Positions 6,949 through 59,724 of a stretch of DNA of 64,000 bases are shown here, piece by piece (the first letter of the stretch is position 1; each line of letters starts with the position of its first letter). Location of the stretch: assembly GCA_031401135.1 (NCBI GenBank), contig JANNRF010000345.1, positions 729 to 64,728 on the forward strand, in the 5' to 3' direction. This DNA is from Deltaproteobacteria bacterium (GTDB taxonomy: Bacteria; Myxococcota_A; UBA9160; UBA6930). The notes beneath the pieces are model-generated. The model did not search any database, was not told where the DNA came from, and was given only the letters and a program-made list of their open reading frames with translations. A program made the translations under genes and the position numbers.

Positions 6949-8049
6949 TCATTGCCAGTAACTGCCGGCGAGCATCTGCTCGAGCAGCGGGCGGTGCGGG
7001 ATCGTGGCGTCGAGGTCTGCCGGCCAGCTGGCCTCGCCGAAGTGCACCGCGCGCGCCTGGATGCGCGCCATGATGATGGCATGGCGCAGCGCGGCGTAGG
7101 CCTCGTACCAACGCAGGTCGATCCCCTGGCCTGTTAGGCGCGCGTACTCGGCGGAGACGTCCGCGGCGCGCAGGAACTCCGGCATGCCGGGCAGGCCCGC
7201 GCCGCGCGCGATCATCTGGAAGAACGCGTGCAGGAACACGAGCCAGCCGAGATCGAGCCCGCGCGGGCCCGGCGCCGCCATCTCCCAATCGAGCACCGCC
7301 GCGGGCGCGAAGCCGTCGTAGAGCACATTGCCGATCCGCGAGTCGCCCCAACTGATTACGGTCTCGCCCTCGTCCACAGGCCAGTGCGCGTCGAGCCACG
7401 CGAACGCGCTCTCGATCACCGGGTAGCGCCGGCCTTGGCGCATCCAGTCGTAGAAGCGGCGCTGGTTCTCGACGTGACGGCGCAGCGCGGTGGCGCCGGG
7501 CAGCGGAAACTCGAGGAAGCTCGCGCCGGACTTGTCGAGGTCTATCGCGTGGAGCTTCGCGATCGCGGCGATCGTCGCGTTCTGGAGCGCGCGCTGCTCG
7601 CCGGGGCTCGCTTCCGAGAGCCAGCTGCTCATCGGGTAGGGCATGATGTCCGGCGGCACGCGGCCGGCGACGCGATCCATTAGGAAGAACGGCGAGCCGA
7701 TGCGCGCGGCGTCGAGTTCGAGCCAGCGCACGTTCGGCGCCGGCACGCCGCCGCGCGCCGCGATCTGCATCACGCCGAATTGCGCGGCGAGGTCGTAGTT
7801 AGGGAAGACCGGCACGTCGCGCGGATCCGGCGCGACGCGCGCCACGAACGGCGCAGTGCGCTCCGCGCGTGCCTCGCGCCAGGTCGCCTCGAACAGCAGC
7901 GTCTCGCTCGACATGCCCGTGCCCGAGGGGCTCGCGAGGTTGCCGATGCGCGCGCCGGGCAGCTTCGCCGCGAGCCACTGCTCGAGCCGCGCGCGCGTTT
8001 GCTCGAGATCGCGCGTCGAGCGCTTAGGGTTCGCGATGGCCTCGGGCAT
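6949..8049 (-). CDS. Phosphotransferase family protein (APH-like), paralog of 1123..2130
   Basis: ATG at 8049 (MPEAIANPKRSTRDLEQTRARLEQWLAAKLPG...). Motif ISWGDSRIGNVLY, then LDWEMA. Confidence 0.85.
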   Translation of the reverse strand: MPEAIANPKRSTRDLEQTRARLEQWLAAKLPGARIGNLASPSGTGMSSETLLFEATWREARAERTAPFVARVAPDPRDVPVFPNYDLAAQFGVMQIAARGGVPAPNVRWLELDAARIGSPFFLMDRVAGRVPPDIMPYPMSSWLSEASPGEQRALQNATIAAIAKLHAIDLDKSGASFLEFPLPGATALRRHVENQRRFYDWMRQGRRYPVIESAFAWLDAHWPVDEGETVISWGDSRIGNVLYDGFAPAAVLDWEMAAPGPRGLDLGWLVFLHAFFQMIARGAGLPGMPEFLRAADVSAEYARLTGQGIDLRWYEAYAALRHAIIMARIQARAVHFGEASWPADLDATIPHRPLLEQMLAGSYWQ

Positions 8050-8209
8050 GCGCGGGCTCCGTGCGAGAAGCCGCGACCCTAGCGCGCTCGCGCTGCGCCG
8101 AAGTCGGCGACCGCACGCGCCATTCACGAGCGCAGTGCCGCGGAGATTGGCGGCGCGACCGGATCTGGCGTTCCCTGCGAGAGGCCCGCCCTTCCTGGAG
8201 ACCCCGCCC

Positions 8210-10390
8210 ATGCGCACCACGCACCGCTCGCTGTGCCGCTTCTGCCACGCGCACTGCGCGGTAAAGGTCGACGTCGAAGACGGGCGTGTCGTCAAAGTGA
8301 TTGGGGACAAGGACGACCCGCTCTACGCGGGCTTCAGCTGCGCGAAGGGGCGCGAGGTGCCGCGGCAGATGGAGCACGCGCAGCGGTTGCTGCACTCGCA
8401 GCGCCGCCGCGCGGACGGCACGCACGAGCCGATCGCGAGCGCGCAGGCGATTCGCGAGATCGCCGAGCGAGTCCGGCGCATTCTCGACCGCGACGGCCCG
8501 CGCGCGATCGCGGCCTACACCGGCACGTACTCGTTCCCGTATCCGCCCACGCAGCCGATGGGCTGGGCGTTCATGGACGCGATCGGTTCGCCCATGCGCT
8601 TCACCTCGAACACGATCGATCAGCCGGGCAAGACGATCGCGCTCGCGATGCACGGCAGCTGGGGCGCGGGACCGCAAACCTTTGACGAAGCGGACACCTG
8701 GCTGTTGTTGGGGATCAACCCGCTGATCGCGATGAGCGGCGGCATCCCGAATACGAATCCCGCGAAGCAGCTGCACCAGGCGAAGAAGCGCGGGCTAAAG
8801 CTGATCGTGATCGATCCGCGCCGTACCGAGTGCGCCGAGCACGCGACGGTTCACTTGCAACCAAAGCCGGGCGAGGATCCGACGATTCTCGCGGGCCTCT
8901 TGCGCGTGATCCTCTGCGAAGGCCTGCACGACAAGCGCTTCGTCGACGAGAACGTGCGCGGTTTCGAGGCGCTGCGCGCTGCGGTCGAGCCCTTCACGCC
9001 TGAGTACGTGGCGCGCCGCGCCGACGTGCCCGCCGCGGAGCTGATCCGCGCCGCGCGCATCTTCGCCGCAGCGAAGCGCGGCTGCGCGAACGCGGGCACT
9101 GGCCCCAACATGGCGGGCCACGGCAACGTCACGGAGTACCTCTTGCTCGCACTGATTACGGTGTGCGGGCGCTGGCTGCGCGCCGGCGAGCGCGTGCCGA
9201 ACCCCGGCGCGCTGCTGCCGCAGTTCCCCGCAAAGGCGCAGGCGAACCCGCCGTGGCAAGCACACGGCTACGGCGAGCCGCTGCGCGTGCGCGGCTTCAC
9301 GGACGCTGCGTGCGGCCTCGCGACCGCCGCGCTCGCCGAAGAAATCCTGCAGGGCGGCCCGGGCCAGGTGAAGGCGCTGTTCGTGCTGGGCGGCAATCCC
9401 ATGCTCGCGTGGCCCGATCAGAAAAAGACGTACGACGCGATGCAGAAGCTCGAGCTGCTCGTCACGCTCGACATCAAGATGTCCGCGACGGCGCGGCTCG
9501 CTCATTATGTCGTCGCGCCGAGAGTCGGCTACGAGGTGCCAGGGCTCTCGCTGCCGAACGAGACGCTGAGCTTCTTCGGCGTCGGCTTCGGTTACACGCA
9601 GCCCTACGCGATGTACGCGCCGAAGCTGGTGGATCCGCCCGCGGGCTCGGACCTCATCGAGGACTGGGAGCTCTTCTACGGCCTCGCCCAACAACTGGGC
9701 AAGCAGCTGAAGCTCTCGTCGTCCTTCTCCTGGGGCCCGGCGGCGACCGAAGGCCCGACGCCGCTCGACATGCAGAACAAGCCCAGCACGGACGAACTCT
9801 ACGAGCTGCTTTGCAAAGGCTCGCGCGTTCCGCTCGACACCGTGAAGCAAGCCGGCCGCGGCGCGCTCTACCCCGACGCTTCGATCGTGGTGGCGGAGAA
9901 GGACGCCGGCTGGGAGGGCAAGCTCGACATCGGCAACGCCTACTTGTTGGGGGAACTCGAGGAGATCGCGCAAGAGCCGCTCGACCAAGGCACGCGCTTC
10001 GCATACCGCCTCGTCTCACGCCGCCTGCAAGACATCTACAACTCGAGCGGCCGCGACATCCCGCGCCTCACGCGCAAGTGGGCCTACAACCCGGCCTTCA
10101 TGAATCCCGCAGACCTCGAGAAGGAAGGCCTCGCGACTGGCGACACGATCGAAATCGCGAGCGACTACGAGCGCATCCTCGGTGTGGTCGAGAACGACCC
10201 GACCGTACGCGCCGGCGTCATCTCGATGGCGCACGCCTTCGGCGGCTTACCCGAGGAATCGCACAACGTACGCGGACTCGGCAGCAATACCGGCGCCCTA
10301 ATACCCGTAGATCGAGACTACGACCCGATCAGCGGCATCCCCCGCATGAGCGCGATCCCGGTGAACGTGACAAAGAACGCTGGAATGTGA
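8210..10390 (+). CDS. Molybdopterin-dependent oxidoreductase (DMSO reductase/formate dehydrogenase superfamily)
   Basis: ATG 8210. N-terminal Fe-S motif CRFCHAHCAVKV, 726 aa, C-terminal molybdopterin dinucleotide-binding-like region. Confidence 0.88.
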   Translation: MRTTHRSLCRFCHAHCAVKVDVEDGRVVKVIGDKDDPLYAGFSCAKGREVPRQMEHAQRLLHSQRRRADGTHEPIASAQAIREIAERVRRILDRDGPRAIAAYTGTYSFPYPPTQPMGWAFMDAIGSPMRFTSNTIDQPGKTIALAMHGSWGAGPQTFDEADTWLLLGINPLIAMSGGIPNTNPAKQLHQAKKRGLKLIVIDPRRTECAEHATVHLQPKPGEDPTILAGLLRVILCEGLHDKRFVDENVRGFEALRAAVEPFTPEYVARRADVPAAELIRAARIFAAAKRGCANAGTGPNMAGHGNVTEYLLLALITVCGRWLRAGERVPNPGALLPQFPAKAQANPPWQAHGYGEPLRVRGFTDAACGLATAALAEEILQGGPGQVKALFVLGGNPMLAWPDQKKTYDAMQKLELLVTLDIKMSATARLAHYVVAPRVGYEVPGLSLPNETLSFFGVGFGYTQPYAMYAPKLVDPPAGSDLIEDWELFYGLAQQLGKQLKLSSSFSWGPAATEGPTPLDMQNKPSTDELYELLCKGSRVPLDTVKQAGRGALYPDASIVVAEKDAGWEGKLDIGNAYLLGELEEIAQEPLDQGTRFAYRLVSRRLQDIYNSSGRDIPRLTRKWAYNPAFMNPADLEKEGLATGDTIEIASDYERILGVVENDPTVRAGVISMAHAFGGLPEESHNVRGLGSNTGALIPVDRDYDPISGIPRMSAIPVNVTKNAGM

Positions 10391-11073: not shown

Positions 11074-13512
11074 TTACGTCAACACGCCCTTCGCCGCGAG
11101 CGCCGCGATCTTCTCCGCGCTGTAGCCGAGCACTTCCGTCAGCACGAACTCGTTGTCGCGGCCGAAGTGAATCGCGGCCTTCGGACGCAGCGGCTCGAGT
11201 TCGCTCAGCTTGATGCGGCCGCTCTCGACGAAGGTGGTCTGGTAGATCGAGTGTTCGCACTCGATCCAGTGGTCGCGATGCTGCATCTGCGGGCAGGCGT
11301 AGAGGCCCGCGGTGTCGAGCGCTTCGTGCGCGGGCACGCCGCGGGCTTGCAACGCCTGTTCGATCGCGCCCGGCTCGCGCTCGGCGCACCACGCGACGAC
11401 GGCTGTCGTCACGAGCGCTCGCTCGCCGCGTCGAGGGATTAGGTCCGCGCGCTGCATCTCGGCGCACAGCTCGCGCCAGTCGCGGTCGTCGCGCACCGCG
11501 ATCGCAACCCAGCGGTCTCTGCCTGCGCACGCGAACACGCCGTGCGGGAAGTAGTTCTCGTCCTCGTTGGCGTTGCCGCGCAGCACGTGGCCGTTCACAC
11601 TGAAATCGAGGTAACCGGGTGCGGCGAAGTGCAGGGCGCTCTCGGCTTGCGATTGGTCGATGCGCTGGCCGCGGCCGCTGCGGCGTTGCTCGTCGATCGC
11701 GCCTAACAGCGCGAGCGCGTTGTACCGCACGGCAATGAAGTCGGTGTACGCCGCCCACGGGCCGGACGGGATGCCGCCGGGCTCGGCGGCGAGAGTCATG
11801 TAACCCGTAACAGATGCGGCCAAGTTCCCGAAGCCGGTGAAGCTTCGCCACGGTCCGGTCTGCCCCATCAGGCAGCTTTCGAGCAGGATCGCGCGCGGGT
11901 TCAACTCGTGGATCGTTTCCCAGCCGAGACCGAGCTTGTCGAGCACGCCCGGGCCGAACGAATCCGTAATCACATCGGCCCAGCGCACGAGATCGAGAAT
12001 CGTCTCGCGGCCTTCGGGCATGTGCATGTCGATCGCAACGCCGAGTTTGTTGGCGTTCGCGCTCTGGAAACCCCCAGCGCCTTCGGGGTGCGGGTTCGAG
12101 AACTGATACGGCGTGATCACGCGTAGCGTGTCGATGTGCTTGCTCGATTCGACGTGCACCACGGTGGCGCCGTAATCAGCGAGCACGCGCGTCGCGCCGG
12201 GGCCGGCGAGCACCCAGAACAGGTCGAGCACCTTGAGGCCCTCGAAAGGCAGTTTGCCGTGGTGGCCCTCGCCGGCGTGGATCACCTCGACAGGCGCCTC
12301 GTCGATCGAGAGCGGCTTCCTGCGCGGATCGCTGCGCACTTCCTGCGTGTGCTCGCCGAGCCGCGGCGCGCGGCGCGTGAACTGCAGCGGCGTTTCTGAG
12401 AACTTCGCCCACGGTCCCGGGTGCGCGACGGGCGTGCTGTCGAGCGGGCTCGGCAGCTTCACCGCGAACTCGCGTGCCGCGAGCTGCGGGCTGCTCGCGA
12501 TCTCGCCGAGGTCGAACACCGGTGCGACGAGCATGCGCCGCTTCACGGATTGCTCCATCAACTCGGCGTTCGTCTTGGTGATGAAGAACTCACGCAGGGC
12601 ATTGTCGACGGGTTCGTAGGCCGTCTCGGGCAGCGCACCTTGGGCAATGCGAATCGCGAAGGTGTTCCAGTCTTGATCGACGAGCGCCGGATCGCAGCGG
12701 CCCTCCTCGACCAGCCAGCCCAATAAGCGCTTCATGAAGTGACCGGTGGACGGCAAGAACGCCGGGCCGAGTACGACCCAACCGTTGGCGGTCGGGTAGC
12801 GCGTACGCAGGAACGCGCCCTTGATGAACACGCCTCCCGAGATTCGGCGTGCGGGCACCTCTCCGATCGCGACGTCGAGCGCGCGAAATTGCGTCGCGAG
12901 CGTCGTCGAATGCTGCATCGCGACATCGACGTGCTGCCCGCGCCCGCTCTGCGCGCGCGCGAAGTGCGCGATCAGCGCGCCGAGCGCGCCGTCGGCCGAG
13001 GCGTGCAGCCCGGCCTGGGGGATCGCGACACGTAGCGGCCGGCCGTCGGATTCGCCTGATAAGAAGAGCGTGCTGCCCGCGGCGAGGCCAATTAGGTCTG
13101 TCGCGGCGTAGTGCGCCTTCGGGCCGTCTTGTCCGAACGCGCTGATCGAGACGTAGATCAGCGCGGGGTTCGTCAACACGAGATCGGCATAGCCGAGGCC
13201 GAGCGCGGCCATCTGCCCCGGCGCCGCGCTCTCGATCAAGAAGTCCGCGCCAAGCGCGAGGCGCTTCAACTCGTCGCGATCCGCCTGCGCGTCGAGATCG
13301 AGCACTGCGCTGCGCTTGCCGCGCGCCCACGCCCACCAGGTGAGCGAGCGCTCAGCGTCGCGCAGATCGCCCGCGAACGGGCCGCGCTTTCGCGCGCTCG
13401 AACCGCCGGGCGGCTCGATCGCGATTACGTCGCAGCCGAGGTCCGCGAGCAGTTGCCCGCACAAGATTCCGTCTTCGTTCGCGAGGTCGAGTACACGGTA
13501 CGGGCGCAACAT
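11074..13512 (-). CDS. Fused tandem family III CoA-transferase (two CaiB/BaiF domains in one 812-aa protein)
   Basis: Two copies of the N-terminal signature: YRVLDLANEDGILCGQLLADLGCDVIAIE, and LKVLDLFWVLAGPGATRVLADYGATVVHVE about 430 aa later. Confidence 0.88.
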   Translation of the reverse strand: MLRPYRVLDLANEDGILCGQLLADLGCDVIAIEPPGGSSARKRGPFAGDLRDAERSLTWWAWARGKRSAVLDLDAQADRDELKRLALGADFLIESAAPGQMAALGLGYADLVLTNPALIYVSISAFGQDGPKAHYAATDLIGLAAGSTLFLSGESDGRPLRVAIPQAGLHASADGALGALIAHFARAQSGRGQHVDVAMQHSTTLATQFRALDVAIGEVPARRISGGVFIKGAFLRTRYPTANGWVVLGPAFLPSTGHFMKRLLGWLVEEGRCDPALVDQDWNTFAIRIAQGALPETAYEPVDNALREFFITKTNAELMEQSVKRRMLVAPVFDLGEIASSPQLAAREFAVKLPSPLDSTPVAHPGPWAKFSETPLQFTRRAPRLGEHTQEVRSDPRRKPLSIDEAPVEVIHAGEGHHGKLPFEGLKVLDLFWVLAGPGATRVLADYGATVVHVESSKHIDTLRVITPYQFSNPHPEGAGGFQSANANKLGVAIDMHMPEGRETILDLVRWADVITDSFGPGVLDKLGLGWETIHELNPRAILLESCLMGQTGPWRSFTGFGNLAASVTGYMTLAAEPGGIPSGPWAAYTDFIAVRYNALALLGAIDEQRRSGRGQRIDQSQAESALHFAAPGYLDFSVNGHVLRGNANEDENYFPHGVFACAGRDRWVAIAVRDDRDWRELCAEMQRADLIPRRGERALVTTAVVAWCAEREPGAIEQALQARGVPAHEALDTAGLYACPQMQHRDHWIECEHSIYQTTFVESGRIKLSELEPLRPKAAIHFGRDNEFVLTEVLGYSAEKIAALAAKGVLT

Positions 13513-28396: not shown

Positions 28397-29653
28397 TCAC
28401 GCGACCGCAGGCTTGATGCGATACCGAATCGGCAGGTGCTTGATGCCCGGCACGAGATTCGACGCCGTGCGCTCCGGCTTGCCAACGAGCTCGATCTGCT
28501 CGATGCGTGGCAGCAGCTCGCGGAAGATCGAACTCGTGGTCTTGCGCGCGAGGTGCGAGCCGATGCAGAAGTGCTCGCCGATGCCGAACGCCAGGTGCGG
28601 ATTCGGATCGCGATCGAGGCGCAGCTCGTCGGGCGCCTCGAAGACTTCCTCGTCGCGATTCGCAGAGGCGTAGAACAGCACGAGCCGGTCGCCTCGCTTG
28701 ATGCGCTGCCCACGCAGCACATAATCGCTGGCCGCGGTGCGCTGCATGTGGTTCACAGGCGTGACGTAGCGGAGCAGCTCGTCGATCGCGGTGTCCTCGA
28801 GCGCCGGGTTCGCGCGCCAGCGCGCGAGCTGATCGGGGTTCTCGAGCAGCGCGAGCATGCCGCCGCCGATGCCGCCGCGCGTGGTCTCGTGGCCGGCGGT
28901 GAAAACAATTAGGGAGTAACCCATCGTCTCCATCACGCCCATCGCTTTGCCGTCGACTTGCGCGTTCGCGATCACGCTGGCGAGATCGCTTCTGGGCTGC
29001 GCGCGCCGGCTCTCCACGATCTTGTTGAAGTAGTTGAAGAAATCGAGGCCGAGCGCGCGCATGTTGGCCGTGCGTTCCTCGAGCGTGCTCATGCCGCCGC
29101 GCTGGAACTCCGGGTCCTCCGCGCCGAACAGCTCGTTGGTGAGGCGCAGGATGAACGGCTCGTCCGCGGGCGGGACGCCGAGGATGTGCGCGAGCACCTT
29201 GAGTGGGTGAAGCGACGCGACGTCTGTAATGAAATCGCACTCGCCCTCGCGGCCGAGCGAGTCCACGAGCGCACGCGCAGAGACATCGACGATTTCGTCG
29301 AGCCGCTTCAGGCCGCGCGGCGTGAACCACGGGCTCGTGACCTTCCGATATTTGCGGTGATCCGGCTGGTCCATGTTGATGATCGTGCGCATCTGCATGA
29401 AGCCGCCCTCGCGCTGGCGGCGCGCCTGCTCCTCGCGAATCATCGTCATACCGGGCTCGTTCAGGAAGATCTCGGGCTGCTTCGAGATCTCGATGATGTC
29501 GGCGTGCTTCGTGATCGCCCAGAACGGCTCCCAACTCTCGACTTCGAAGAACGCGACGGGCGACTCCCGGCGCAGTCGCTTCCACTCTGCGTGCGGATAG
29601 CCGCGCTCCATGTAGCTGCGCGGTTCGACGAGATGCGCGGGAACGATCGACAT
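28397..29653 (-). CDS. Cytochrome P450
   Basis: 418 aa. AGHETT I-helix, ELLR, heme loop FGIGEHFCIGSHLAR. Confidence 0.93.
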   Translation of the reverse strand: MSIVPAHLVEPRSYMERGYPHAEWKRLRRESPVAFFEVESWEPFWAITKHADIIEISKQPEIFLNEPGMTMIREEQARRQREGGFMQMRTIINMDQPDHRKYRKVTSPWFTPRGLKRLDEIVDVSARALVDSLGREGECDFITDVASLHPLKVLAHILGVPPADEPFILRLTNELFGAEDPEFQRGGMSTLEERTANMRALGLDFFNYFNKIVESRRAQPRSDLASVIANAQVDGKAMGVMETMGYSLIVFTAGHETTRGGIGGGMLALLENPDQLARWRANPALEDTAIDELLRYVTPVNHMQRTAASDYVLRGQRIKRGDRLVLFYASANRDEEVFEAPDELRLDRDPNPHLAFGIGEHFCIGSHLARKTTSSIFRELLPRIEQIELVGKPERTASNLVPGIKHLPIRYRIKPAVA

Positions 29654-29767: not shown

Positions 29768-31012
29768 CTAAGCGCTCGCGTTCGCCTCGACCACGAGCGG
29801 GAGCCGCGCGAGCCGGCGCACGAAGATGCTGGGCACGTGGCGCTCGGGCGCGGCGGGATCGAGCGCGAAGCTACGCGTCGCGGCGAGCAATTCCTCGAGC
29901 GCGATGCACGCTTCGAGGCGCGCGAGCGCGGCGCCCACGCAGAAATGCACGCCGCGCCCGAACGCGAGGTGAGCGCGCGGGTGCGGGCGCGCGAGATCGA
30001 GTTCGTCGGGGCGCGGGACGGCGGCCTCGTCGCGATTCGCCGAAGCCCAGAGCAGAGCAGCGCGCGAGCCTGCCGGCAGCGTGACGCCGCCGAGCACCGC
30101 GCTCCTCGTGACCGCGCGGTAATGAAACCGAAACGGCGGCTCGAGCCGTAACACTTCCTCCACGAAAGCCAGGATCGCATCCGGCCGCGCGCGCAGCTCG
30201 GCCTGGAGCGCGGGCCGCTGCGCGAGCAAGCGCGCCGCGCTGCCGATCAAGCTCGCCGTCGATTCGCCGCCCGCGCCCACCAGAATCACCGCGATGCCGA
30301 GCGCGCGGCGCTCCGCGAGTTCGCCGCGCTCCACCGCGCACAGCAGCGCATCGAGCAGCGGTGCGCTCGCGCGCAGCGCGCTGTCGCCTCGCGCAGCGGA
30401 GAAGTGGTGCGCGAGATATGCCGCGTGTTCGCCCGCGATCGCCGCGAGCGCGCCGAGTTCCGCGCGCGTCACCGTGCCCGCGAGCATCGCGCCGCCTTGC
30501 ATCGCCCAGAGCTGAATGCGCGCAAGGTCGGTAGCGGGGATCCCTAACAATCGAGAGATCACCTCGCTCGGCAGCGGATCGCTCACCGCGGCGACGTAAT
30601 CGTCGCCGCGCTGCGCCCACGCGCGCGTCCGCACGCGCGCGCGCTCGCGGATCCACGGCGCCTGCGCCGCGACGCGCACGGCAGCGAGCGCGGGCTGCAC
30701 CACGCGCCGATGCGCGGCGTGCGCCGGATCGTCCGCGGTCGCGAGCACGTCGGTCGAATCGCCGACCCCGCTCATGTCGAAAACAGCCGGCGCTCCGTCC
30801 GGCCCAGTCATGAGCAACCCCGTCAGCCGGCTCGAGAACTCCTCGCTTCGCTCCAGCGCTTCCTCGACCAGCGCGGCAGTCGCAACCAAAAACACGCCGC
30901 TCGATCCCACTTCTAGGACGGGGGCTTCGCGGCGCAGTTGCGCGAAGAACGCGTACGGCTGTTCGAGCACGGCGGGGTCGAACAGGGCGCGCGCGGCCTC
31001 GGCAGGGGTCAT
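29768..31012 (-). CDS. Cytochrome P450
   Basis: 414 aa. Heme loop FGRGVHFCVGAALAR, EEVLRLEPP. Confidence 0.92.
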   Translation of the reverse strand: MTPAEAARALFDPAVLEQPYAFFAQLRREAPVLEVGSSGVFLVATAALVEEALERSEEFSSRLTGLLMTGPDGAPAVFDMSGVGDSTDVLATADDPAHAAHRRVVQPALAAVRVAAQAPWIRERARVRTRAWAQRGDDYVAAVSDPLPSEVISRLLGIPATDLARIQLWAMQGGAMLAGTVTRAELGALAAIAGEHAAYLAHHFSAARGDSALRASAPLLDALLCAVERGELAERRALGIAVILVGAGGESTASLIGSAARLLAQRPALQAELRARPDAILAFVEEVLRLEPPFRFHYRAVTRSAVLGGVTLPAGSRAALLWASANRDEAAVPRPDELDLARPHPRAHLAFGRGVHFCVGAALARLEACIALEELLAATRSFALDPAAPERHVPSIFVRRLARLPLVVEANASA

Positions 31013-42343: not shown

Positions 42344-42898
42344 GTGCGCGAACGTCGACGCCAAGGCTTCACGCTCGTCGAAATGATCATCGTGGTCGCG
42401 ATCCTCGGGATCCTGGCCACGATCGCGGTGCCCAACTTCATCCGCATGCAGACGCGCAGCCGAACCAGCGAGGCCTACACGAACCTCGCGCTGCTGCGCG
42501 AGGCGCAGCTCAGCCATTATGCCGAGGCCGGTAATTTTCTGAAGACCGGCAGCGCACCGGCCGGCGTGCCAGGCACGCGCCAGCGCCCGTGGGCAGGCGC
42601 GAACACGCTCGAGTTCCGCGAGCTGCTCGGCTTCCGCCCCGACGGCGACGTCTATTTCCAATACGGAGTGAACGCGCGAGGCGACGCCTTCACGCTCAGC
42701 GCGCTCTCCGACCTCGATGGCGAAGGGCCGCTCGCGCAGTTCGGTCTCGTGCACGCGGCGCCCGGCACAAAAATGGGTGTGCGCCACGAGATCGGCACCT
42801 GTTCGCCGCTCGGCGTCTACGACCCGGCGACTGGCCGCCCGACGCGCCTCGACACGATCGGCCCGTGCGGCGCGGAAGACGGCAAGACGAAGCTGTGA
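42344..42898 (+). CDS. Type IV pilin/pseudopilin with N-terminal methylation motif
   Basis: GTG start. RRQG|FTLVEMIIVVAILGILATIAVPNF. C-terminal disulfide pair ...GTCSP...GPCGAEDG. Confidence 0.88.
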   Translation: MRERRRQGFTLVEMIIVVAILGILATIAVPNFIRMQTRSRTSEAYTNLALLREAQLSHYAEAGNFLKTGSAPAGVPGTRQRPWAGANTLEFRELLGFRPDGDVYFQYGVNARGDAFTLSALSDLDGEGPLAQFGLVHAAPGTKMGVRHEIGTCSPLGVYDPATGRPTRLDTIGPCGAEDGKTKL

Positions 42899-42902
42899 GG
42901 AG

Positions 42903-43472
42903 ATGCTGCGCGTGCGCCACCAGGAGCAATCGGAGCGTGGCTTCACGCTGATCGAGTTGATGATCGTCGTCGCGATCATCGGAGTTCTGGCCGCGGTCGC
43001 GATTCCCAATTTCATGCGCTTCCAGCTCCGCTCCAAAACGAGCGAGGCGAAGATGAACATCGCCTCGATCCGCACCGCGGAAGACGCGTACTACGCGGCG
43101 AACGGGAAGTTCGCCGGCGCGTTCGTGACGCCGGCCATCGCGCCAGACGCCAGCAAGCACCAGTGGGCCGGAGTTCCCGGCGTGGCGCAATTCGCCGAGC
43201 TCGGCTGGCGACCAGAGGGTGATCTCTATTTCGTCTACGCCGTGAACGGCTTGGCCAGCTCGTTCTCGATCACCGCGATCGGAAACCTCGACGGCGATGC
43301 GACTCCTTCGCAGTACGCCTACTTCCGGCAGATACCGGGTCTGGCGCTCGGGCCCGGCCCTCCAATCGGCACCTGCTCGCCGACCGGCGTCTACAACGCC
43401 GCGACGAGCTCGCAGGATCTCCTCAACACCGTAGGCCCATGCACGGCGCAGGACGGCCAGACCCAGTTCTGA
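42903..43472 (+). CDS. Type IV pilin/pseudopilin, tandem paralog
   Basis: ATG 42903. SERG|FTLIELMIVVAIIGVLAAVAIPNF. C-terminal ...GTCSP...GPCTAQDG. Confidence 0.88.
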   Translation: MLRVRHQEQSERGFTLIELMIVVAIIGVLAAVAIPNFMRFQLRSKTSEAKMNIASIRTAEDAYYAANGKFAGAFVTPAIAPDASKHQWAGVPGVAQFAELGWRPEGDLYFVYAVNGLASSFSITAIGNLDGDATPSQYAYFRQIPGLALGPGPPIGTCSPTGVYNAATSSQDLLNTVGPCTAQDGQTQF

Positions 43473-43529
43473 CGCGTTCGGCGAACCCGCAGCGCGTTGC
43501 TAACTGACAGGCCTCTTCGAGGAGGCCTC

Positions 43530-46500
43530 GTGCACAAGCCGCTCGCTGTTCTTTCTGCGCTGGCGTTGCTCGCCGCGCATCCCACGCTCGCGGAAGAGCC
43601 CGCTGCGGAAGCGCCTTGGCGTGTCGATGCGCCGATCGGGCCCGCGCGCACGGTCGCATTCGAGACGGGCGAGGGCAGCTGGCTGCATCTCGACGTGCAC
43701 CCGGACGGCGCGCGCATCGTGTTCTCGTTGTTAGGGGATCTCTATCTGCTGCCGATCGCAGGCGGCGAGGCGCAGCGCATCACGAGCGGCCCGGCCTACG
43801 ACGTGCAGCCGCGCTTCAGCCCGGACGGAACGCAGGTTGCGTTCGCGAGCGATCGCTCGGGCATCGAGAACCTGTGGGTCTGCGATCTCGCGGGCGGCGC
43901 GGCGCGGGCGCTGACGCAAGAAAAAGAAGTCACGGTCAGCGCGCCCGCCTGGGCGCCGAGCGGGGAGTGGGTCGTCGGGCGCAAGCGCATCACGGATGCG
44001 TCCTCGCTCGCCACGGTCGAACTCTGGATGTGGCACGTGAAGGGCGGCCAGGGCGTGCGGCTGAGCAAGCGCGAGGAGCAGCCCGACGCCGCGGACCCCA
44101 TGTTCGCGCCGGGCGGCGATCGCTTCGTTTATTATTCCGCGCGCGACGAGCGTTATCGCTACAGCCGGAACGTCAACGAAGGCATCTGGCAGATCAAGCG
44201 GCTCGATCGGCTCGATGGCAAGTCGGTGCCGATCACAGGCGAGTTCGGCGGCGCGGCCACGCCGGTGTTTTCGCGCGACGGCAAGACGCTGGCGTTCGTG
44301 CGCCGGGTGCGCGCGAAGACGCGCATCGAGCTGATGGACGTGGCGAGCGGCCGCACGCGCGTGCTTGCCGAGGGCGTGCAGCGCGACAACCAAGAGGGCT
44401 TCGCGTTCCACGGCGTGTTCCCGGGCTACGCGTTCACGCCGGACGGGCGTGCGCTGATCGCGAGCGCCGATAACAAGCTGTGGCGCTTCGACGTTGCGAG
44501 CGGGGCGCGCACTGCGGTTCCGTTCCGCGCGAAAGTCGAGCAGACCGTGACGGAGGCGTTGCGGCAGCCGCGGCGCGTCGGCCAGGGCGACGTGCGCGCG
44601 CGTGTGTTGCGCTGGGCTTCGCTCTCGCCTGATGGCAAGACGCTGCTGTTCGAGGCGCTCGGGAGCATCTGGACGATGCCCGCGAAGGGCGGGGCTCCGC
44701 GCCGGCTGACGGACGGCGCGGATCTCGAAGTAGCGCCCGCGTTTTCGCCGAATGGGCGCGAGGTGGTTTACGCGACCTGGAACGACCGCGAGGGCGGGCA
44801 CGTCTGGCGCCGCGCGCTCGCGGGCGGCAAGCCGGTGCGCTTGACCGACGCGCCGGGGCAGTACGCGAACCCGGCATTCTCGCCCGACGGCAGCAACGTG
44901 GTGTTCGTGCGCGGCAGCGGCGCGACGTTCCGCGATCACGATTTGCTCGAGGAACTCTGGCTCGAAGTGCGCTGGGTGAGCCGCGCGGGCGGCGAGAGTC
45001 ATTATGTGGCGAGCGTCGCGAACCGCGGCGGCGACCGGCGCATGCCGCGGCCCGCGTTCTCGCCGGACGGCGCTCGCATCTTTTTCGTGGACGACGAGCC
45101 GGCCGAGCAGCCCGCCACGCCGTCGCGCAGCGTGCTCCACTCCGCGCAGCTCGACGGCACCGACAAGCGCGCGCACCTGCGCTTCACGCGCGCGGAAGAA
45201 ATCGCGGTCTCGCCTGATGGCCGGCACGTCGCCTTCAACGAGCAGCACGATGCTTGGGTGACTGCGTTGCCGAGCGCGAGCGACGCGGCCATCGAGGTTG
45301 GCCTCGAGAACGGCGCGCTGCCGCTGGCGCGCCTCTCGGACGAAGGCGGCGAGTGGGTCGCGTGGGCACGCGGCGGCGAGGCGATCAGCTTCGTGCGCGG
45401 GCCGGAAGTGCGAGTGACGCGCCTCGCGGATGCGCTACGCGCGCCCGAACCGGAGCCCGCGCCCGCACCTGATAAGCCGGCTGCAGCGAAGCCCGAGGCG
45501 GAGAAGGAGAAGAAACCCGCGCTGCCCGCGAGCGAGCTCATCGCAGTCGAGCTGCGCGTGCCGCGTGCGCGGCCGACCGAGCTCGTCGCGTACGTCGGCG
45601 CGCGCATCATCACGATGCGCGGCGACGAGGTGATCGAGAACGGCGCGCTGATTGTCGACGGCGATCGCATCCGCAGCGTGGGCGCCGCGAGCGAGCTCGC
45701 AATCCCTGCCAACGCGCGGCGCGTCGACCTAACAGGCCGCACGCTCATCCCGGGCCTCTTCGACGAGCACGCACACCTCCACTACTCGACGCTCGACGTC
45801 CACCCACAGCGCCCGTGGAAGTACCTCGCGAACCTGGCCTACGGCGTGACGTCGACCCACGACGTCTCTGCGACCAGCCACGAAGTGTTCGCGCAGTCCG
45901 AGCGCGTCGAGGCGGGCCTGATGATCGGGCCGCGCATTTTCTCGACGGGCTCGGTGCTGTACGGCGCTGACCTGCCGAGCCGCACGATCATCAAGTCATT
46001 GGACGACGCGCGCCGCACGCTGCGCCGCATGAAGGCCTTCGGCGCGTTCAGCGTGAAGTCCTACATGCAGCCGGGCCGTAATCAGCGCCAATGGATCCTG
46101 CAGGCCGCCCGCGAGGAGGGCATGCTCGTCGTGCCCGAGGGCGGCGGCGACCTCGAGATGGACATGACGATGGTGCTCGACGGGCACACCACGATCGAGC
46201 ACGCGCTGCCGATAGCGCCGCTCGCGCGCGACGTGATCCAGCTCGTGTCGCAAAGCGGCACCGCCTACACGCCCACACTGCTCGTCGCTTACGGCGGCTT
46301 GGCTGGCGATCTCTGGTTCCATCAACACTACGAGCTTTGGAAGGATGAGCGGCTCGCGCGCTTCGTACCGCAGAGCATCATCGACGGGCTCGGGCGCATT
46401 CGCGGAGTGATGGCGACCGATCCCGCGGACTGGCACCACCTCGACGTCGCCGCCTCCGCGAAGGACTTGTTACGGGCCGGCACGCTCGTCAACCTCGGTG

Positions 46501-46778
46501 GCCACGGCCAGATGCAGGGCCTCGGCCCGCACTGGGAGATGTGGGCGTTCGTGCAGGCCGGCATGACGCCTCACGAGGCATTGCGCGTCGCGACGCTGAA
46601 CCCCGCGAAGACGCTCGGCCTCGACCAAGATCTGGGCTCGCTCGAAGCCGGCAAGCTCGCCGATTTCGCAGTGCTTGAACTGAACCCGCTGGAGCGCATC
46701 GAGAACAGCGAGAGCGTGGCGCTCGTGGTGAAGAACGGCGTCGCGTATGCGCTGAGCGAGCTGGAGCGGGCGCAGTGA
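43530..46778 (+). CDS. Periplasmic TolB-like beta-propeller(s) fused to an amidohydrolase domain
   Basis: GTG 43530, 5 nt after GAGGAGG. Signal peptide LSALALLAAHPTLA|E. Repeated PxFSPDG propeller blades. C-terminal FDEHAHLHY metal-binding motif. Confidence 0.85.
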   Translation: MHKPLAVLSALALLAAHPTLAEEPAAEAPWRVDAPIGPARTVAFETGEGSWLHLDVHPDGARIVFSLLGDLYLLPIAGGEAQRITSGPAYDVQPRFSPDGTQVAFASDRSGIENLWVCDLAGGAARALTQEKEVTVSAPAWAPSGEWVVGRKRITDASSLATVELWMWHVKGGQGVRLSKREEQPDAADPMFAPGGDRFVYYSARDERYRYSRNVNEGIWQIKRLDRLDGKSVPITGEFGGAATPVFSRDGKTLAFVRRVRAKTRIELMDVASGRTRVLAEGVQRDNQEGFAFHGVFPGYAFTPDGRALIASADNKLWRFDVASGARTAVPFRAKVEQTVTEALRQPRRVGQGDVRARVLRWASLSPDGKTLLFEALGSIWTMPAKGGAPRRLTDGADLEVAPAFSPNGREVVYATWNDREGGHVWRRALAGGKPVRLTDAPGQYANPAFSPDGSNVVFVRGSGATFRDHDLLEELWLEVRWVSRAGGESHYVASVANRGGDRRMPRPAFSPDGARIFFVDDEPAEQPATPSRSVLHSAQLDGTDKRAHLRFTRAEEIAVSPDGRHVAFNEQHDAWVTALPSASDAAIEVGLENGALPLARLSDEGGEWVAWARGGEAISFVRGPEVRVTRLADALRAPEPEPAPAPDKPAAAKPEAEKEKKPALPASELIAVELRVPRARPTELVAYVGARIITMRGDEVIENGALIVDGDRIRSVGAASELAIPANARRVDLTGRTLIPGLFDEHAHLHYSTLDVHPQRPWKYLANLAYGVTSTHDVSATSHEVFAQSERVEAGLMIGPRIFSTGSVLYGADLPSRTIIKSLDDARRTLRRMKAFGAFSVKSYMQPGRNQRQWILQAAREEGMLVVPEGGGDLEMDMTMVLDGHTTIEHALPIAPLARDVIQLVSQSGTAYTPTLLVAYGGLAGDLWFHQHYELWKDERLARFVPQSIIDGLGRIRGVMATDPADWHHLDVAASAKDLLRAGTLVNLGGHGQMQGLGPHWEMWAFVQAGMTPHEALRVATLNPAKTLGLDQDLGSLEAGKLADFAVLELNPLERIENSESVALVVKNGVAYALSELERAQ

Positions 46779-46816
46779 TCTCGCGATTCTCAGGGCCGCC
46801 GCCTATGGTGCGCCAC

Positions 46817-47344
46817 ATGAACAAACTTCTTCGCACCGCGCTCGCGCTCCTCAGCATTCCCTTCGCGGCGAATGCCGCGGAGCCGGTGGTCGGCGCTGCA
46901 GCGCCGGCGTTCTCGCTGCCCGGTTCCGATGGCGCCACGCACGCGCTCGCCGATCACGTCGGCAAGCGCGGCATCGTGCTGGCCTGGTTCCCGAAAGCGT
47001 TCACACCTGGTTGAACGGAAGAACTGAAGGCGCTGCGTGACAGCGCCAACGCCATCGCGGAGTACGACGTCGCCGTTTATTACGCGAGCCTCGACGACCC
47101 GGCGAAGAACGCCGAGTTCGCGCGCGCGCTGGGCGCGAAACACGTGCTGCTCTCGGACAACAGCGCCGCGGCTGCGAAGGAATACGGCGTGCTCGGCCTC
47201 GGCGGGCTCTACGCGAAACGCTGGACGTTCTACATCGGCAAAGACGGGCGCATCGCCGCGATCGACCAGGACGTGAACGTGAAGAGCGCAGGCCAGGACA
47301 TCGCACGCAAGCTCGGTGAGTTGGGGTTTGCCAAACGGAAGTAG
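46817..47344 (+). CDS. Probable selenoprotein: secreted BCP/PrxQ-type peroxiredoxin with UGA (Sec) at 47012-47014
   Basis: Track ORFs 46775..47014 and 47144..47344 are in the same frame with no other stop between them. Read-through gives WFPKAFTPG-U-TEELKALRD, the Prx active site with TGA in place of Cys. A hairpin lies at 47029-47047. Signal peptide ALLSIPFAANA|A. Confidence 0.75.
47029..47047 (+). promoter_or_regulatory. bSECIS-like stem-loop
   Basis: GGCGCTG (47029-47035) / CAGCGCC (47041-47047) form a perfect 7-bp stem with apical loop CGUGA. The stem begins 14 nt after the UGA. Confidence 0.65.
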
Positions 47345-47372
47345 GGCGGCGGAAAAATCGGAGCGCGCCGCC
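47345..47372 (+). terminator. Hairpin after the peroxiredoxin gene
   Basis: GGCGGCG (47345-47351) / CGCCGCC (47366-47372), followed by GTTTGAG. Confidence 0.35.
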
Positions 47373-57313: not shown

Positions 57314-57529
57314 TCACGCCTCTTCGACGATCTTCAGCGCCCGATTCGGGCAGTAGCGCACCGCCGCTTCCACCTGCGCGCGCGTCGCTTCGGGGAACGG
57401 ATCGAGCAACAGCTGCGCCTGCCCATAATCACCCGCGCGTTCGACTACGAGAAACACGTCTGGCGCCTCGCCCATGCACACGCCGTGACCCTGGCAGAGA
57501 TCGCGGTCGATCAGCACGCGCAGCTTCAT
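57314..57529 (-). CDS. Ferredoxin (single-cluster, P450 partner type)
   Basis: ATG 57529 in an ATGA overlap with the P450 stop. IDRDLCQGHGVCMGEAPDVF...YCP. 71 aa. Confidence 0.85.
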   Translation of the reverse strand: MKLRVLIDRDLCQGHGVCMGEAPDVFLVVERAGDYGQAQLLLDPFPEATRAQVEAAVRYCPNRALKIVEEA

Positions 57530-58854
57530 CGCACGCGTCTCCTGTAGCTGAGCCGGCACGGCTCGCTGGTACGCAGAATCAACGACGGCATCTCGTCGCG
57601 GTAACTCTCGGGCGCGTCCACCAATGCGAACTCGTAGCGCGCGAGCAGCGCCGTGAAGATCGCCTTCACTTGTAGCAGCGCGAACGCGTTGCCCACGCAC
57701 TTGCGCCTGCCAGCGCCGAACGGGATGTACGCGAAGACGTTCTCAGGGAACGCGCGCTCGGGGTCGAAGCGCTCAGGGTCGGGGTAGTGCTCGGGAATGC
57801 GGTGTGCGACGTAGGGCGAGACCACGATCGTCGCGCCACTCGGGATTACGGCGCCCTTGAACGTGAAATCGCGCTTCACGAGCCGCATCAGCGTGACGAG
57901 CGGCGGGTGGATGCGCAGCACCTCGAACACGAAGCGCTCGAGCGCGGGCAACTCGCGCAGCGCTGCGTGCCCGAGCTCGCCGCCCGGCGCGTAGACGGAA
58001 TCCACTTCGCGGACGAGGCGCGCGGCGTGCTGCGGGTGACGCGCGAGCTCGACGATCGTCCAGGTCGCGGTGTTCGAGCTGGTGTGAAAGCCCGCGAACA
58101 TGATCCAGATGACCATGCCCACGATCTCGTCGTCTCTGAGCCGCCGCCCGTCGAGATAGGCCGCTTCCATGAACGACTGCAACATGTCGGGCGACTGCGC
58201 GCCGGTGCGGCGCCGCTCCTCGATCACGGCCGTAATCAGTTCGACGAGCCGCGCTCGCGAGCGGTCGCGACGCGCAAACGCTTCCTGCTGGCCGTACGGA
58301 TCGAGGATCGACTCTGCCGAGACTGCGTGTTCGAGATCCTGATAAAGCGCGCCGAACTCGTCCGTCAGCTTCGCGCGGAACTCGCTGCCCATTAGGCAGT
58401 GCGTCGAGGTGCGCAGCACGAGCTCCTTCAGCTCGTCGTAGAAGTCCTTCTCGCCGGCATCGTCCCAACGCGCGACCCACTCCTCGACTTCGCGCGCGAT
58501 CACGCTCGCGTAGGCCTTCATGCGATCGAGGCGCAGCGCGTTCGCCTGCATCTTCACTTGCTGGCGCTCGAGTTCGAGCGGCGCGCCGAACTGAATGCCC
58601 TCGCCGAACACGGGCACCATGAACCGGTACGGCTCGGACGCCGAGAGCTGATCGTCCGGGGCGCGGAAGACGGCCTCCGATGCCTCGGGGCTGCTCAATA
58701 ACACGTGGCACGCCCCGCCCAGCTCGAACTCGGCGAACTCGCCGCACTCGCGGTAGGCGCGCAGCATGAAGTGCGCGGGGTGCGCGACGAACTCTTCGTA
58801 ATGCCCGCTGCCGGGCTTTGCGCCGGAGACGACCGGCCAGCCCGCGCCGCTCAC
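57526..58854 (-). CDS. cyp51: CYP51-like cytochrome P450 (sterol 14-alpha-demethylase family)
   Basis: GTG 58854 in a GTGA overlap with the upstream stop. Collinear with M. tuberculosis CYP51 as I recall it (VSG..GH.EEF..P, YPFM.P.FGEG, FAG.HTSS, IPFGAGR..CVG, YR......C...YRRR). Confidence 0.8.
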   Translation of the reverse strand: MSGAGWPVVSGAKPGSGHYEEFVAHPAHFMLRAYRECGEFAEFELGGACHVLLSSPEASEAVFRAPDDQLSASEPYRFMVPVFGEGIQFGAPLELERQQVKMQANALRLDRMKAYASVIAREVEEWVARWDDAGEKDFYDELKELVLRTSTHCLMGSEFRAKLTDEFGALYQDLEHAVSAESILDPYGQQEAFARRDRSRARLVELITAVIEERRRTGAQSPDMLQSFMEAAYLDGRRLRDDEIVGMVIWIMFAGFHTSSNTATWTIVELARHPQHAARLVREVDSVYAPGGELGHAALRELPALERFVFEVLRIHPPLVTLMRLVKRDFTFKGAVIPSGATIVVSPYVAHRIPEHYPDPERFDPERAFPENVFAYIPFGAGRRKCVGNAFALLQVKAIFTALLARYEFALVDAPESYRDEMPSLILRTSEPCRLSYRRRVR

Positions 58855-59724
58855 GCCACCGGCCTCGGCCGCACTCTCGGAAACTCGGGGTGCCGGAATG
58901 CGTCGCCTGGCTTCAGGCGGCCGGAGAGCAGCTGGAACACGCTCGTGGCCTTGGATTCGGGAATCGTCTTGTCGGTCAGGAACGGGCGCTGCGCGTAGCG
59001 CGCATCGGCCCCGAAGAACCGTAGTGACAACGTGCGCCGCCGCGCGCCCGCATGGGTGGCAGCGCCGCCGTGCAGGAGCCCGGGATGAAACACGACCGCG
59101 TCGCCCGGCTCGACGCCGAACGCCACGACGTCCCAACTTGTTGGGTCTCGCTGGCGCTCGGCCTCGATGTTCGGGAGCCGCGGCAGCGAGCCATCGCCGT
59201 AGATCGGCGTCGTGTCGTCAGCCGGATCGAACGCCGAGCCGTCGTACATCGGGCCGTTGTGCGAGCCGCGCACGAACTCGAGCGAGTGCTCGCGCGCCAC
59301 GGCGTCGAACGAGATCCACACCACCGCGATCTGCTCGCCGTCCACGGGCAGGTACGACGAATCCTGGTGCCATGGCGTGCGGCGCGTATCGCCGCCTTCT
59401 TTCAGGAATACCTGCTCGTACATGAACCACACGTCGGGCGCGTTCCAGAGCGCGGCGACGGCGTTCGGCGGCTGGCGTCGCGTGCACGAGATCGCGGTAG
59501 ACGGGCTGTGCGCTGCGGTTCGCGAGATCCTGATAGAAGCGGCCATCGCCGCCCGCATAGGTGTTCGCGCTCGGGCTCGGGTTCGCGAGGCTCCACTCGT
59601 AGGCGACGCGCGCGTCGGCGAGCTCGCGCTCGCCTAGCAGCCCACGCAGGCACACCACCCCATCACGCCGGAAGGTGGCGCGCATTGCGTCGTCGATGCG
59701 CGTTCCCGCGCTGCTCGCCGTCAC
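58851..59724 (-). pseudogene. Phytanoyl-CoA dioxygenase (PhyH) family gene split by a +1 frameshift near 59465-59480
   Basis: The N-terminal part is in track ORF 59218..59724 (...FYQDLANRSAQPVYRDLVHAT). The C-terminal part is in track ORF 58851..59558 (QPPNAVAALWNAPDVWFMYEQVFLKEGG..TPWHQDSSY...). Removing one C from ACGCCAG restores a single frame. Confidence 0.7.

Follow-up and report, generated by a model that had tools for sequence, protein, structure and literature searches.

The window analysed here, a stretch of 64,000 nucleotides from an uncultured 'Deltaproteobacteria' bacterium (contig JANNRF010000345.1 of GenBank assembly GCA_031401135.1), carries at 46817-47344 what is very probably one functional gene for a putatively exported peroxiredoxin of the BCP/PrxQ type, in which selenocysteine (Sec), encoded by an in-frame UGA, serves as the peroxidatic residue 66. 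The observations behind this reading are a single frame, peroxiredoxin homology on both sides of the UGA, a pairing of Sec and Cys codons at the same site among homologues, a covarying hairpin that is specific to the TGA forms, purifying selection on the codons past the TGA, and the normal use of TGA as a stop in other genes of the window. An earlier note on this DNA, made from its letters alone, had proposed a secreted selenocysteine peroxiredoxin with its own bacterial selenocysteine insertion sequence (SECIS) element, and comparison with homologues supports that proposal.

Reading Frame and Identity of the Protein

The gene occupies one forward-strand frame of 175 codons, consisting of 174 sense codons and a TAG stop (47342-47344), and contains a single in-frame TGA, at 47012-47014, which is codon 66. 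A list of open reading frames (ORFs) shows it as two entries, 46775..47014, which the TGA closes, and 47144..47344. Both share one frame, with no further stop from 47015 to the TAG, and the coordinates and translation by which the earlier note had joined them check out. Read from the ATG at 46817, the protein starts with MNKLL and runs MNKLLRTALALLSIPFAANAAEPVVG...AWFPKAFTPG-U-TEELKALRDSANAIAEYD...AKRWTFYIGKDG...GFAKRK, where U denotes Sec and TEELKALRDS follows it. This start is kept in the orthologous loci L001, L003, L085 and L086, whose proteins begin with M(S/T)(K/R)LL, and an ATG located 12 nt upstream is not conserved in them. As had been expected of standard gene callers, public annotations cut the gene into a piece of 65 or 69 amino acids and another of 86 or 66; all 15 members of the 90% cluster of the C-terminal fragment are truncated pieces, some of which are named 'peroxiredoxin Q/BCP'. 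The features of the gene are collected in Table 1.

Table 1. Positions of the features assigned to the selenoperoxiredoxin gene and its immediate flanks.
Feature	Position	Strand	Basis
Possible own promoter (tentative), motif TCTCGCG - 18 nt - TATGGT	46779..46809	+	Conservation in orthologues
Selenoperoxiredoxin gene, complete	46817..47344	+	Single frame with one TGA, Pfam AhpC-TSA across the TGA, conserved start
Signal-peptide-like N-terminus MNKLLRTALALLSIPFAANA, predicted cleavage after A-N-A	46817..46876	+	Residue layout, hydrophobicity heuristic
Active-site motif P59-K-A-F-T63-P-G-U66 (PxxxTxxU)	46991..47014	+	Invariant columns, alignment to 3drn
In-frame UGA as putative Sec codon 66	47012..47014	+	TGA or Cys codons at the same site in homologues
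14-nt spacer from UGA to hairpin	47015..47028	+	Ungapped alignment of Sec forms
Bacterial SECIS-type hairpin, 7-bp stem GGCGCUG/CAGCGCC, loop CGUGA	47029..47047	+	RNAalifold, covariation, covariance model
Loop Arg codon CGU, giving the apical-loop G-U	47036..47038	+	Codon usage in Sec versus Cys forms
Codon of Arg135, conserved catalytic Arg (K-R-W-T-F)	47219..47221	+	Invariant column, aligned to the 3drn Arg
Inverted repeat GGCGGCG..13 nt..CGCCGCC then GUUU, directly after the stop; possible weak terminator (tentative)	47346..47372	+	Fold of -15.1 kcal/mol

When Cys is put in place of the stop, the translation matches the Pfam domain AhpC-TSA (PF00578) with 90.5 bits (E=1e-25; cut-off 26) over profile positions 1-123 of 124, spanning the TGA. 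Each half also matches on its own, at profile positions 1-40 and 42-123, which places the TGA exactly at position 41, the peroxidatic Cys. In an alignment of 43 sequences (A3), the U66 column holds Cys in all 42 aligned homologues, which are 48-64% identical to the window protein, and this bears out the site that the earlier note had assigned to the TGA. Residues W57, F58, P59, A61, F62, T63, G65, C/U66, T67, E69, R135, W136 and T137 are invariant across this alignment. The PxxxTxxC/U motif and a catalytic Arg define peroxiredoxins, and in the predicted protein P59, T63, U66 and R135 are all in place.

The closest solved structure is Bcp1 of S. solfataricus, 3drn (E=5e-15, query residues 25-149), followed by 5epf, 2ywn and AhpE. 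In 3drn, the TPG(C45S) site lines up with the active-site motif, and the Arg with Arg135. A thioredoxin fold, which in peroxiredoxins has the peroxidatic residue at the start of helix alpha-2, is therefore the expected one, because the protein is homologous in sequence to these solved peroxiredoxins. The two best NCBIfam models are BCP (PRK09437; 71.1 bits) and PrxQ (66.4 bits), and both fall below their equivalog cut-offs of 140 and 260. Thus the assignment to the BCP/PrxQ type holds as regards the nearest models and structures but not as full membership; the product appears to be BCP/PrxQ-like, of a subfamily that no curated model covers.

Among selenoproteins, the earlier note had pointed to the known 'Prx-like' family. 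The family is indeed a known one, but its correct name is 'Prx', defined by TxxU (PMC1088965, Table 3; PMC13188914, Table 1), and not 'Prx-like', defined by UxxC. The protein has T63-P-G-U66 inside its PF00578 domain, and, as every testable feature of the 'Prx' family is found in it, the gene can be assigned to that family as a new member. Three other candidates were rejected: the 'Prx-like' family, since T-E-E follows Sec and the protein has no Cys; PrxU (NF040737), with 26.9 bits against a cut-off of 270; and Prx-SUH, on its NCBIfam score.

One homologue, P0035 (63% identical), has Trp at the peroxidatic position (WFPKAFTPG-W-TQEL), and its TGG codon is one base away from TGA. Possible explanations are a variant without activity, a sequencing error and a mutation away from a Sec codon.

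The Hairpin Downstream of the UGA Codon

The TGA is followed by the 14-nt spacer and then by the arm GGCGCTG (47029-47035), the loop CGTGA (47036-47040) and the arm CAGCGCC (47041-47047), exactly as the earlier note had described the perfect 7-bp stem. A perfect Watson-Crick hairpin of 7 bp located 8-20 nt past a TGA, with a G early in its loop, occurs at only 6 of the 1184 TGAs in the window (0.5%). Evidence of this kind, from a single sequence, is suggestive only; it is the comparative evidence that makes the hairpin solid.

Homologues were gathered in two sets, a scan of one genome per species, which gave 80 loci, and a metagenome scan, which gave a further 80. At the equivalent of codon 66, TGA stands in 106 and TGC or TGT in 68 of the homologous genes (174 genes at 162 loci). 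In the genome set, 35 of the 39 Sec forms carry a perfect 7-bp stem, against none of the 42 Cys forms; the mean numbers of pairs are 6.85 and 3.90, respectively (Mann-Whitney p ~7e-15). The independent metagenome set shows the same division, with a perfect stem in 54 of 61 Sec forms and in 2 of 24 Cys forms. When the 39 Sec forms are aligned without gaps, 97.6% of the cells are paired, compared with 30-64% in slid registers. Moreover, compensatory double changes occur in four of the seven stem pairs, and the covariation observed among these sequences is not attained in any of 500 shuffles. RNAalifold, run on windows of 78 nt, returns a hairpin of the 47029-47047 type as the sole consensus structure. 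The spacer has the same length in all Sec forms, and the alignment is free of gaps.

The loop is conserved as well. Its second position is G throughout two alignments (A1 and A4) and, when all distinct Sec forms are counted, in 78 of 79. This G belongs to an Arg codon, which is CGU in 61 of the 71 Sec forms that have Arg there (86%) and CGC in none, whereas the Cys forms mostly use CGC. The genomes concerned favour CGC, and in the genes of the window CGU makes up only 6.8% of the Arg codons. The preference for CGU thus reflects selection acting on RNA and not on protein, because the codon predominates in Sec forms, gives way to CGC in Cys forms and is rare in the window's own genes.

A covariance model was built from 40 Sec forms, with the clade of the window excluded. 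In the 64-kb window it gives one significant match, at 47012-47056, with 32.9 bits and E=1.7e-6, a score that is partly due to shared coding sequence; the next-best match reaches 11.5 bits (E=0.29). This is the kind of search that the earlier note had suggested as a check, and it singles out the proposed element. Bacterial SECIS elements are described as stem-loops that follow the UGA directly on its 3' side and whose small apical loop includes a G (PMC1088965). In position, in its 7-bp stem, in the G of its loop and in its specificity to TGA forms, the hairpin corresponds to such an element, as judged from the nucleotide sequences.

A few homologues depart from the division between the two forms. 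Three genes with a Cys codon retain a SECIS-type hairpin, namely L142 2645 (7 of 7 pairs), L158 382 (7 of 7) and L091 1049 (6 of 7), and these look like recent conversions of Sec to Cys, or of Cys to Sec. Conversely, the TGA form L131 513 has a degraded hairpin, with 5 of 7 pairs, the loop ACCGA and no G at loop position 2; this gene may be decaying or may use a different SECIS element.

Conservation of the Gene and Rival Explanations

Several observations weigh against the reading as a Sec-decoding gene for an exported enzyme. The hairpin is short, with its 7 bp, and the 70-nt region around it folds no better than shuffled sequences (z=-0.10, in DNA of 68.5% GC). No Rfam family matches it, either at gathering thresholds over the whole window or at E<=10 on 46900-47200, and the window yields chance matches to microRNA and small RNA families only. 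This null result is taken as uninformative, since the bacterial SECIS models in Rfam are clade-specific. Additionally, no selA, selB, selD or tRNA-Sec gene was found in the window, which covers 64,000 of the 64,731 bp of the NCBI contig, or beside any of 54 related loci; Pfam detected no SelA, SelB or SelD among the approximately 50 ORFs of the window, and a tRNA search with ARAGORN came up empty in the window and gave no tRNA-Sec for the 54 loci. The same ORFs include no redox partner recognised by Pfam (thioredoxin, DsbD or CcdA), and two close Cys homologues have no conserved redox partner beside them, their neighbour being an acyl-CoA dehydrogenase. Finally, the signal peptide is predicted only from visual inspection and a hydrophobicity heuristic.

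The rival explanation that survives best, improbable as it is, holds that the UGA is read through without Sec. The residue inserted would be Trp, Cys or Arg, brought by a near-cognate or suppressor tRNA, and the hairpin would be a generic stimulator of read-through or pausing. Sec insertion is deduced here from sequence, and the Trp of homologue P0035 at the equivalent of codon 66 would fit such decoding. However, the site is that of the family's catalytic Cys, where the chemistry is possible with Cys or Sec only; the position and size of the hairpin and the G-U of its loop are typical of SelB-binding elements (PMC1088965); and TGA acts as a normal stop in other genes of the window. Indeed, TGA is the stop of 15 of the 28 Pfam-supported genes in the window, and the recoding is therefore local. 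A reassignment of TGA in the genetic code is ruled out by the same count, as the earlier note had argued; among the ordinary stops that it cited, the genes ending at 680, 10390, 14569 and 16560 stand, but the ORF ending at 15630 is probably no real gene.

A pseudogene, in other words a Cys-peroxiredoxin killed by a nonsense mutation from TGC to TGA and left with an untranslated downstream part, is very unlikely. It would account for the two fragments in gene calls and for the lack of visible Sec machinery in the window, and the two codons differ by just one nucleotide. Nevertheless, the TGA is common to 106 family members, and the closest relatives, among them L001 (a metagenome-assembled genome (MAG) filed under 'Deltaproteobacteria', 89% identical), L003, L085, L086 and L087, keep both the TGA and the hairpin, as do L081 and L083, which are near-identical copies in other assemblies. 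The gene order amidohydrolase, peroxiredoxin, DUF2255, DUF2855 is preserved in L001, and likewise in L085 and L086 over the extent of their shorter contigs. At these syntenic loci the neighbouring proteins are about 70-89% identical to those of the window, so that the TGA has been retained while they diverged by 11-30%. The hairpin and the rare CGU codon have been conserved along with it. Downstream of the TGA, the ratio of nonsynonymous to synonymous substitution rates (dN/dS) is 0.106 in the comparison with L001 and 0.135 in that with L003, at a synonymous rate (dS) of about 0.43, and is just as low as upstream (0.149 and 0.22, respectively). The segment past the TGA is under purifying selection. 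The earlier note had asked whether homologues might naturally end at FTPG; they do not, as the downstream segment shows peroxiredoxin homology along with its dN/dS of 0.11-0.14.

It is equally hard to credit that the hairpin does nothing at the RNA level and arises incidentally from the codons of the conserved peptide K-A-L-R-D-S-A. Stem and loop do fall in the codons of a conserved L-R-(D/E)-S segment, and some Cys forms have 6 of the 7 pairs, two of them all 7. On the other hand, Cys forms with a similar peptide, such as SFRESG in L037 and SLRENG in L151, have no more than 4-5 of the 7 pairs, the compensatory changes maintain the stem while altering the amino acids (S-L..S-G versus A-L..S-A), and the synonymous bias towards CGU is confined to Sec forms.

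An assembly or sequencing error hiding a true TGC or TGT, conceivable in a contig assembled from a metagenome and named by the earlier note as an outcome to be checked, is refuted by the identical TGA in independent ENA, Logan, JGI and NCBI assemblies (L001, L003, L081, L083, L085-L087). Both the pseudogene and the error fail because the TGA and hairpin are kept in relatives, the gene order is conserved and dN/dS is low downstream. Taken together, the evidence makes it highly probable that the UGA of this peroxiredoxin gene is genuinely decoded as Sec, and most of the remaining doubt attaches to the Sec machinery, which would lie beyond the window.

Absence of Cysteine, Predicted Export and Proposed Mechanism

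The window protein contains no cysteine at all, a feature that the earlier note does not mention, and Sec is followed by T-E-E-L-K. The resolving Cys of BCP/PrxQ enzymes, which are of the atypical 2-Cys type with some 1-Cys members, lies five residues after the peroxidatic Cys and has no counterpart in it. Most of the family members recovered from Acidobacteriota, Verrucomicrobiota and Planctomycetota read U/C-T-x-E-C and have a second Cys at +4. The window clade and the Cys homologues nearest to it (58-64% identity in A3; motif C-T-x-E-L) have Leu where the sister clade has this Cys, and these homologues possess a single Cys each. As it has no Cys, the enzyme is, by its predicted sequence, a '1-Sec' peroxiredoxin, whose selenenic acid would have to be reduced by an external thiol.

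The N-terminus has the layout of a signal peptide, which agrees with the earlier description of it as Sec-type. Read directly, it includes K3 and R6, a hydrophobic core of 12 residues and an AxA motif (A-N-A), with no Cys and no twin Arg. The peroxiredoxin domain begins at residue 25 according to Pfam, after an extension of about 24 residues. By the hydrophobicity heuristic, 94% of 112 homologues have a hydrophobic 10-mer within their first 35 residues. These features suggest that the protein is exported through the Sec translocon.

A mechanism consistent with these data would proceed as follows. During translation, the hairpin at 47029-47047 would form 14 nt past the UGA and present its G-U apical loop, and the UGA at 47012 would be decoded as Sec instead of a stop. 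The predicted signal peptide of 20 residues would then route the protein to the cell envelope by way of the Sec translocon. There, the selenolate of U66, placed by Thr63 and Arg135, would attack hydrogen peroxide or organic hydroperoxides and become a selenenic acid, and an external thiol donor would return the oxidised Sec directly to its reduced state. As for the identity of this donor, we infer, purely by analogy with the Cys enzyme PprX, that it would most plausibly be a periplasmic thioredoxin-like protein fed by a membrane electron transporter of the DsbD/CcdA/ScsB type.

A wider interpretation concerns the clade of the window, including L001, L003, L081, L083 and L085-L087. It could represent a distinct, unmodelled lineage of exported, Cys-free, single-Sec peroxide scavengers of the envelope, in uncultured 'Deltaproteobacteria' with no described selenium use, within a related soil family of which more than half are Sec forms truncated in databases. 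This is a tentative proposal, for which the chances seem somewhat less than even. Under it, the selenenic acid may be recycled directly by an envelope thiol reductase, or possibly by the formation of an intersubunit diselenide, and the family as a whole may consist of exported BCP-like enzymes of soil Acidobacteriota, Verrucomicrobiota and Planctomycetota.

Relation to Known Systems and Significance

To our knowledge, PprX is the only characterised envelope BCP-type peroxiredoxin. It is a periplasmic BCP/PrxQ-type enzyme of Caulobacter crescentus with a 20-residue signal sequence. Its reductant is either TlpA, a thioredoxin-like protein of the periplasm that is supplied by ScsB, or the gamma domain of DsbD (PMC3322552). 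PprX and the window protein share the BCP/PrxQ type, the PxxxTxxC site (with Sec in the window protein) and the conserved Arg, and the window protein has a putative signal sequence of similar length, about 20 residues. Unlike PprX, which has its Cys and a resolving Cys, the window protein has Sec and no resolving Cys, and no TlpA, ScsB or DsbD gene lies near its gene. By this analogy, PprX is likely a functional counterpart in envelope peroxide scavenging.

Sec-peroxiredoxins of the TxxU type have been known since 2001-2005 and are among the most abundant bacterial selenoprotein families. There are 253 such genes in the Global Ocean Sampling data (PMC2398784), many Deltaproteobacteria have them, with three copies in Anaeromyxobacter (PMC1794560), and a review of 2026 lists the family with its PxxxTxxU motif (PMC13188914). 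The window gene resembles this 'Prx' family (COG1225/PF00578; PMC1088965, PMC1794560, PMC2398784, PMC13188914) in its PF00578 domain, its PxxxTxxU motif and the pairing of Sec and Cys forms, in a SECIS hairpin that directly follows the UGA and has G in its small apical loop, and in its occurrence in 'Deltaproteobacteria', the lineage richest in selenoproteins. It differs in the predicted N-terminal signal peptide, in the lack of Cys and in scoring below every NCBIfam cut-off. Exported forms are not mentioned in the four publications just cited, which survey bacterial selenoproteomes.

The structures of BCP/PrxQ proteins (3drn, 5epf, 2ywn) align with the window protein at the active-site Thr, Cys and Arg, but canonical BCPs are cytoplasmic and have their resolving Cys at +5, whereas the sister clade has it at +4, a position that is Leu in the window clade. 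AhpE (Rv2238c) of M. tuberculosis (1xxu, 4x0x; E ~2e-9) likewise has one redox residue, no resolving Cys and an external reductant, although it is cytoplasmic, Cys-based and distantly related. PrxU of Eubacterium acidaminophilum (NF040737; PMC13188914) is a biochemically characterised Sec thiol peroxidase with TxxU, but it belongs to a separate peroxiredoxin subfamily.

No new category is involved here, as Sec-peroxiredoxins, bacterial SECIS elements and periplasmic BCP-type peroxiredoxins have each been described already. The novelty is modest and lies in the predicted export signal, the complete absence of Cys and a very large family from soil phyla with a uniform SECIS element and no curated model. 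In practical terms, the window gene and at least 100 recovered relatives are mis-annotated in public databases as two fragments, and no NCBIfam model would rescue them. A SECIS model specific to the family, or a dedicated protein model, would mend the annotation of an abundant antioxidant enzyme of soil bacteria and would also mark the host genomes as selenium users. Moreover, an exported, Cys-free peroxiredoxin with a single Sec would be a natural test case for why Sec is used over Cys and for how envelope peroxidases are recycled; one possible advantage of Sec would be resistance to irreversible over-oxidation where reductant is scarce.

Flanking Signals, Tandem Copies and Genomic Context

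The promoter-like motif TCTCGCG - 18 nt - TAT(G/C)(G/T)T, which ends 7 nt ahead of the ATG, is common to the window, L001, L003, L085 and L086. It is kept in L003 even though no homologues of the window's flanking genes are detectable there. A scan for consensus sigma-70 promoters did not call the motif, and no Shine-Dalgarno sequence is present in 46779-46816. This arrangement suggests that the gene may be transcribed from a promoter of its own, perhaps into an mRNA with little or no leader. The inverted repeat after the stop folds no better than shuffled sequences (z=-0.56), and a terminator scan around the gene called none.

In twelve related loci, mostly from Acidobacteriota, two copies of the gene stand in tandem, 600-900 nt apart. 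These are L023 (3184 and 3994), L038 (3187 and 4106), L019 (884 and 1498), L039 (2432 and 3124), L041 (2549 and 3136), L103, L106, L111, L117, L123, L153 and L155. Six of the twelve consist of two Sec forms, and in the other six a Sec form (FTGG-U-TAEC) lies beside a Cys form (FTQG-C-TIEC). Methanogens have Sec and Cys isoenzymes tied to selenium availability, and by analogy the mixed pairs could provide a backup that depends on it.

Some taxonomic labels are implausible for such high-GC genes, namely 'Spirochaetales' for L003 and 'Bifidobacteriaceae' for L019 and L041. The genes of these loci closely resemble homologues from Acidobacteriota or from the 'Deltaproteobacteria' MAG, and the contigs are probably mis-binned or mislabelled.

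A screen for a second selenoprotein gene in the window, which looked for in-frame TGAs in regions with coding-like GC content at third codon positions, returned adjacent genes or antisense frames only; it is a crude screen that missed the peroxiredoxin gene itself. A molybdopterin oxidoreductase at 7856-10390 (+), with Fe4S4, Molybdopterin and Molydop_binding domains, is an uninterrupted ORF of 844 amino acids with no in-frame TGA. Its enzyme class includes FdhA, the commonest bacterial selenoprotein.

The window is also rich in cytochrome P450 genes (28397-29653, 29768-31012 and 57526-59136), and it encodes family III CoA-transferases (3651-4850 and 11074-13512), luciferase-like and flavin monooxygenases, short-chain dehydrogenases/reductases, beta-lactamase-fold proteins and a sulfotransferase. 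The host looks like an uncultured high-GC lineage that oxidises lipids or hydrocarbons, its closest MAG being filed as 'Deltaproteobacteria'. Two overlapping ORFs, 42344-42898 and 42717-43472 (+), have prepilin-type N-terminal methylation motifs and resemble type IV pilins or pseudopilins; they are located upstream of a TolB-like/amidohydrolase gene at 43497-46778.

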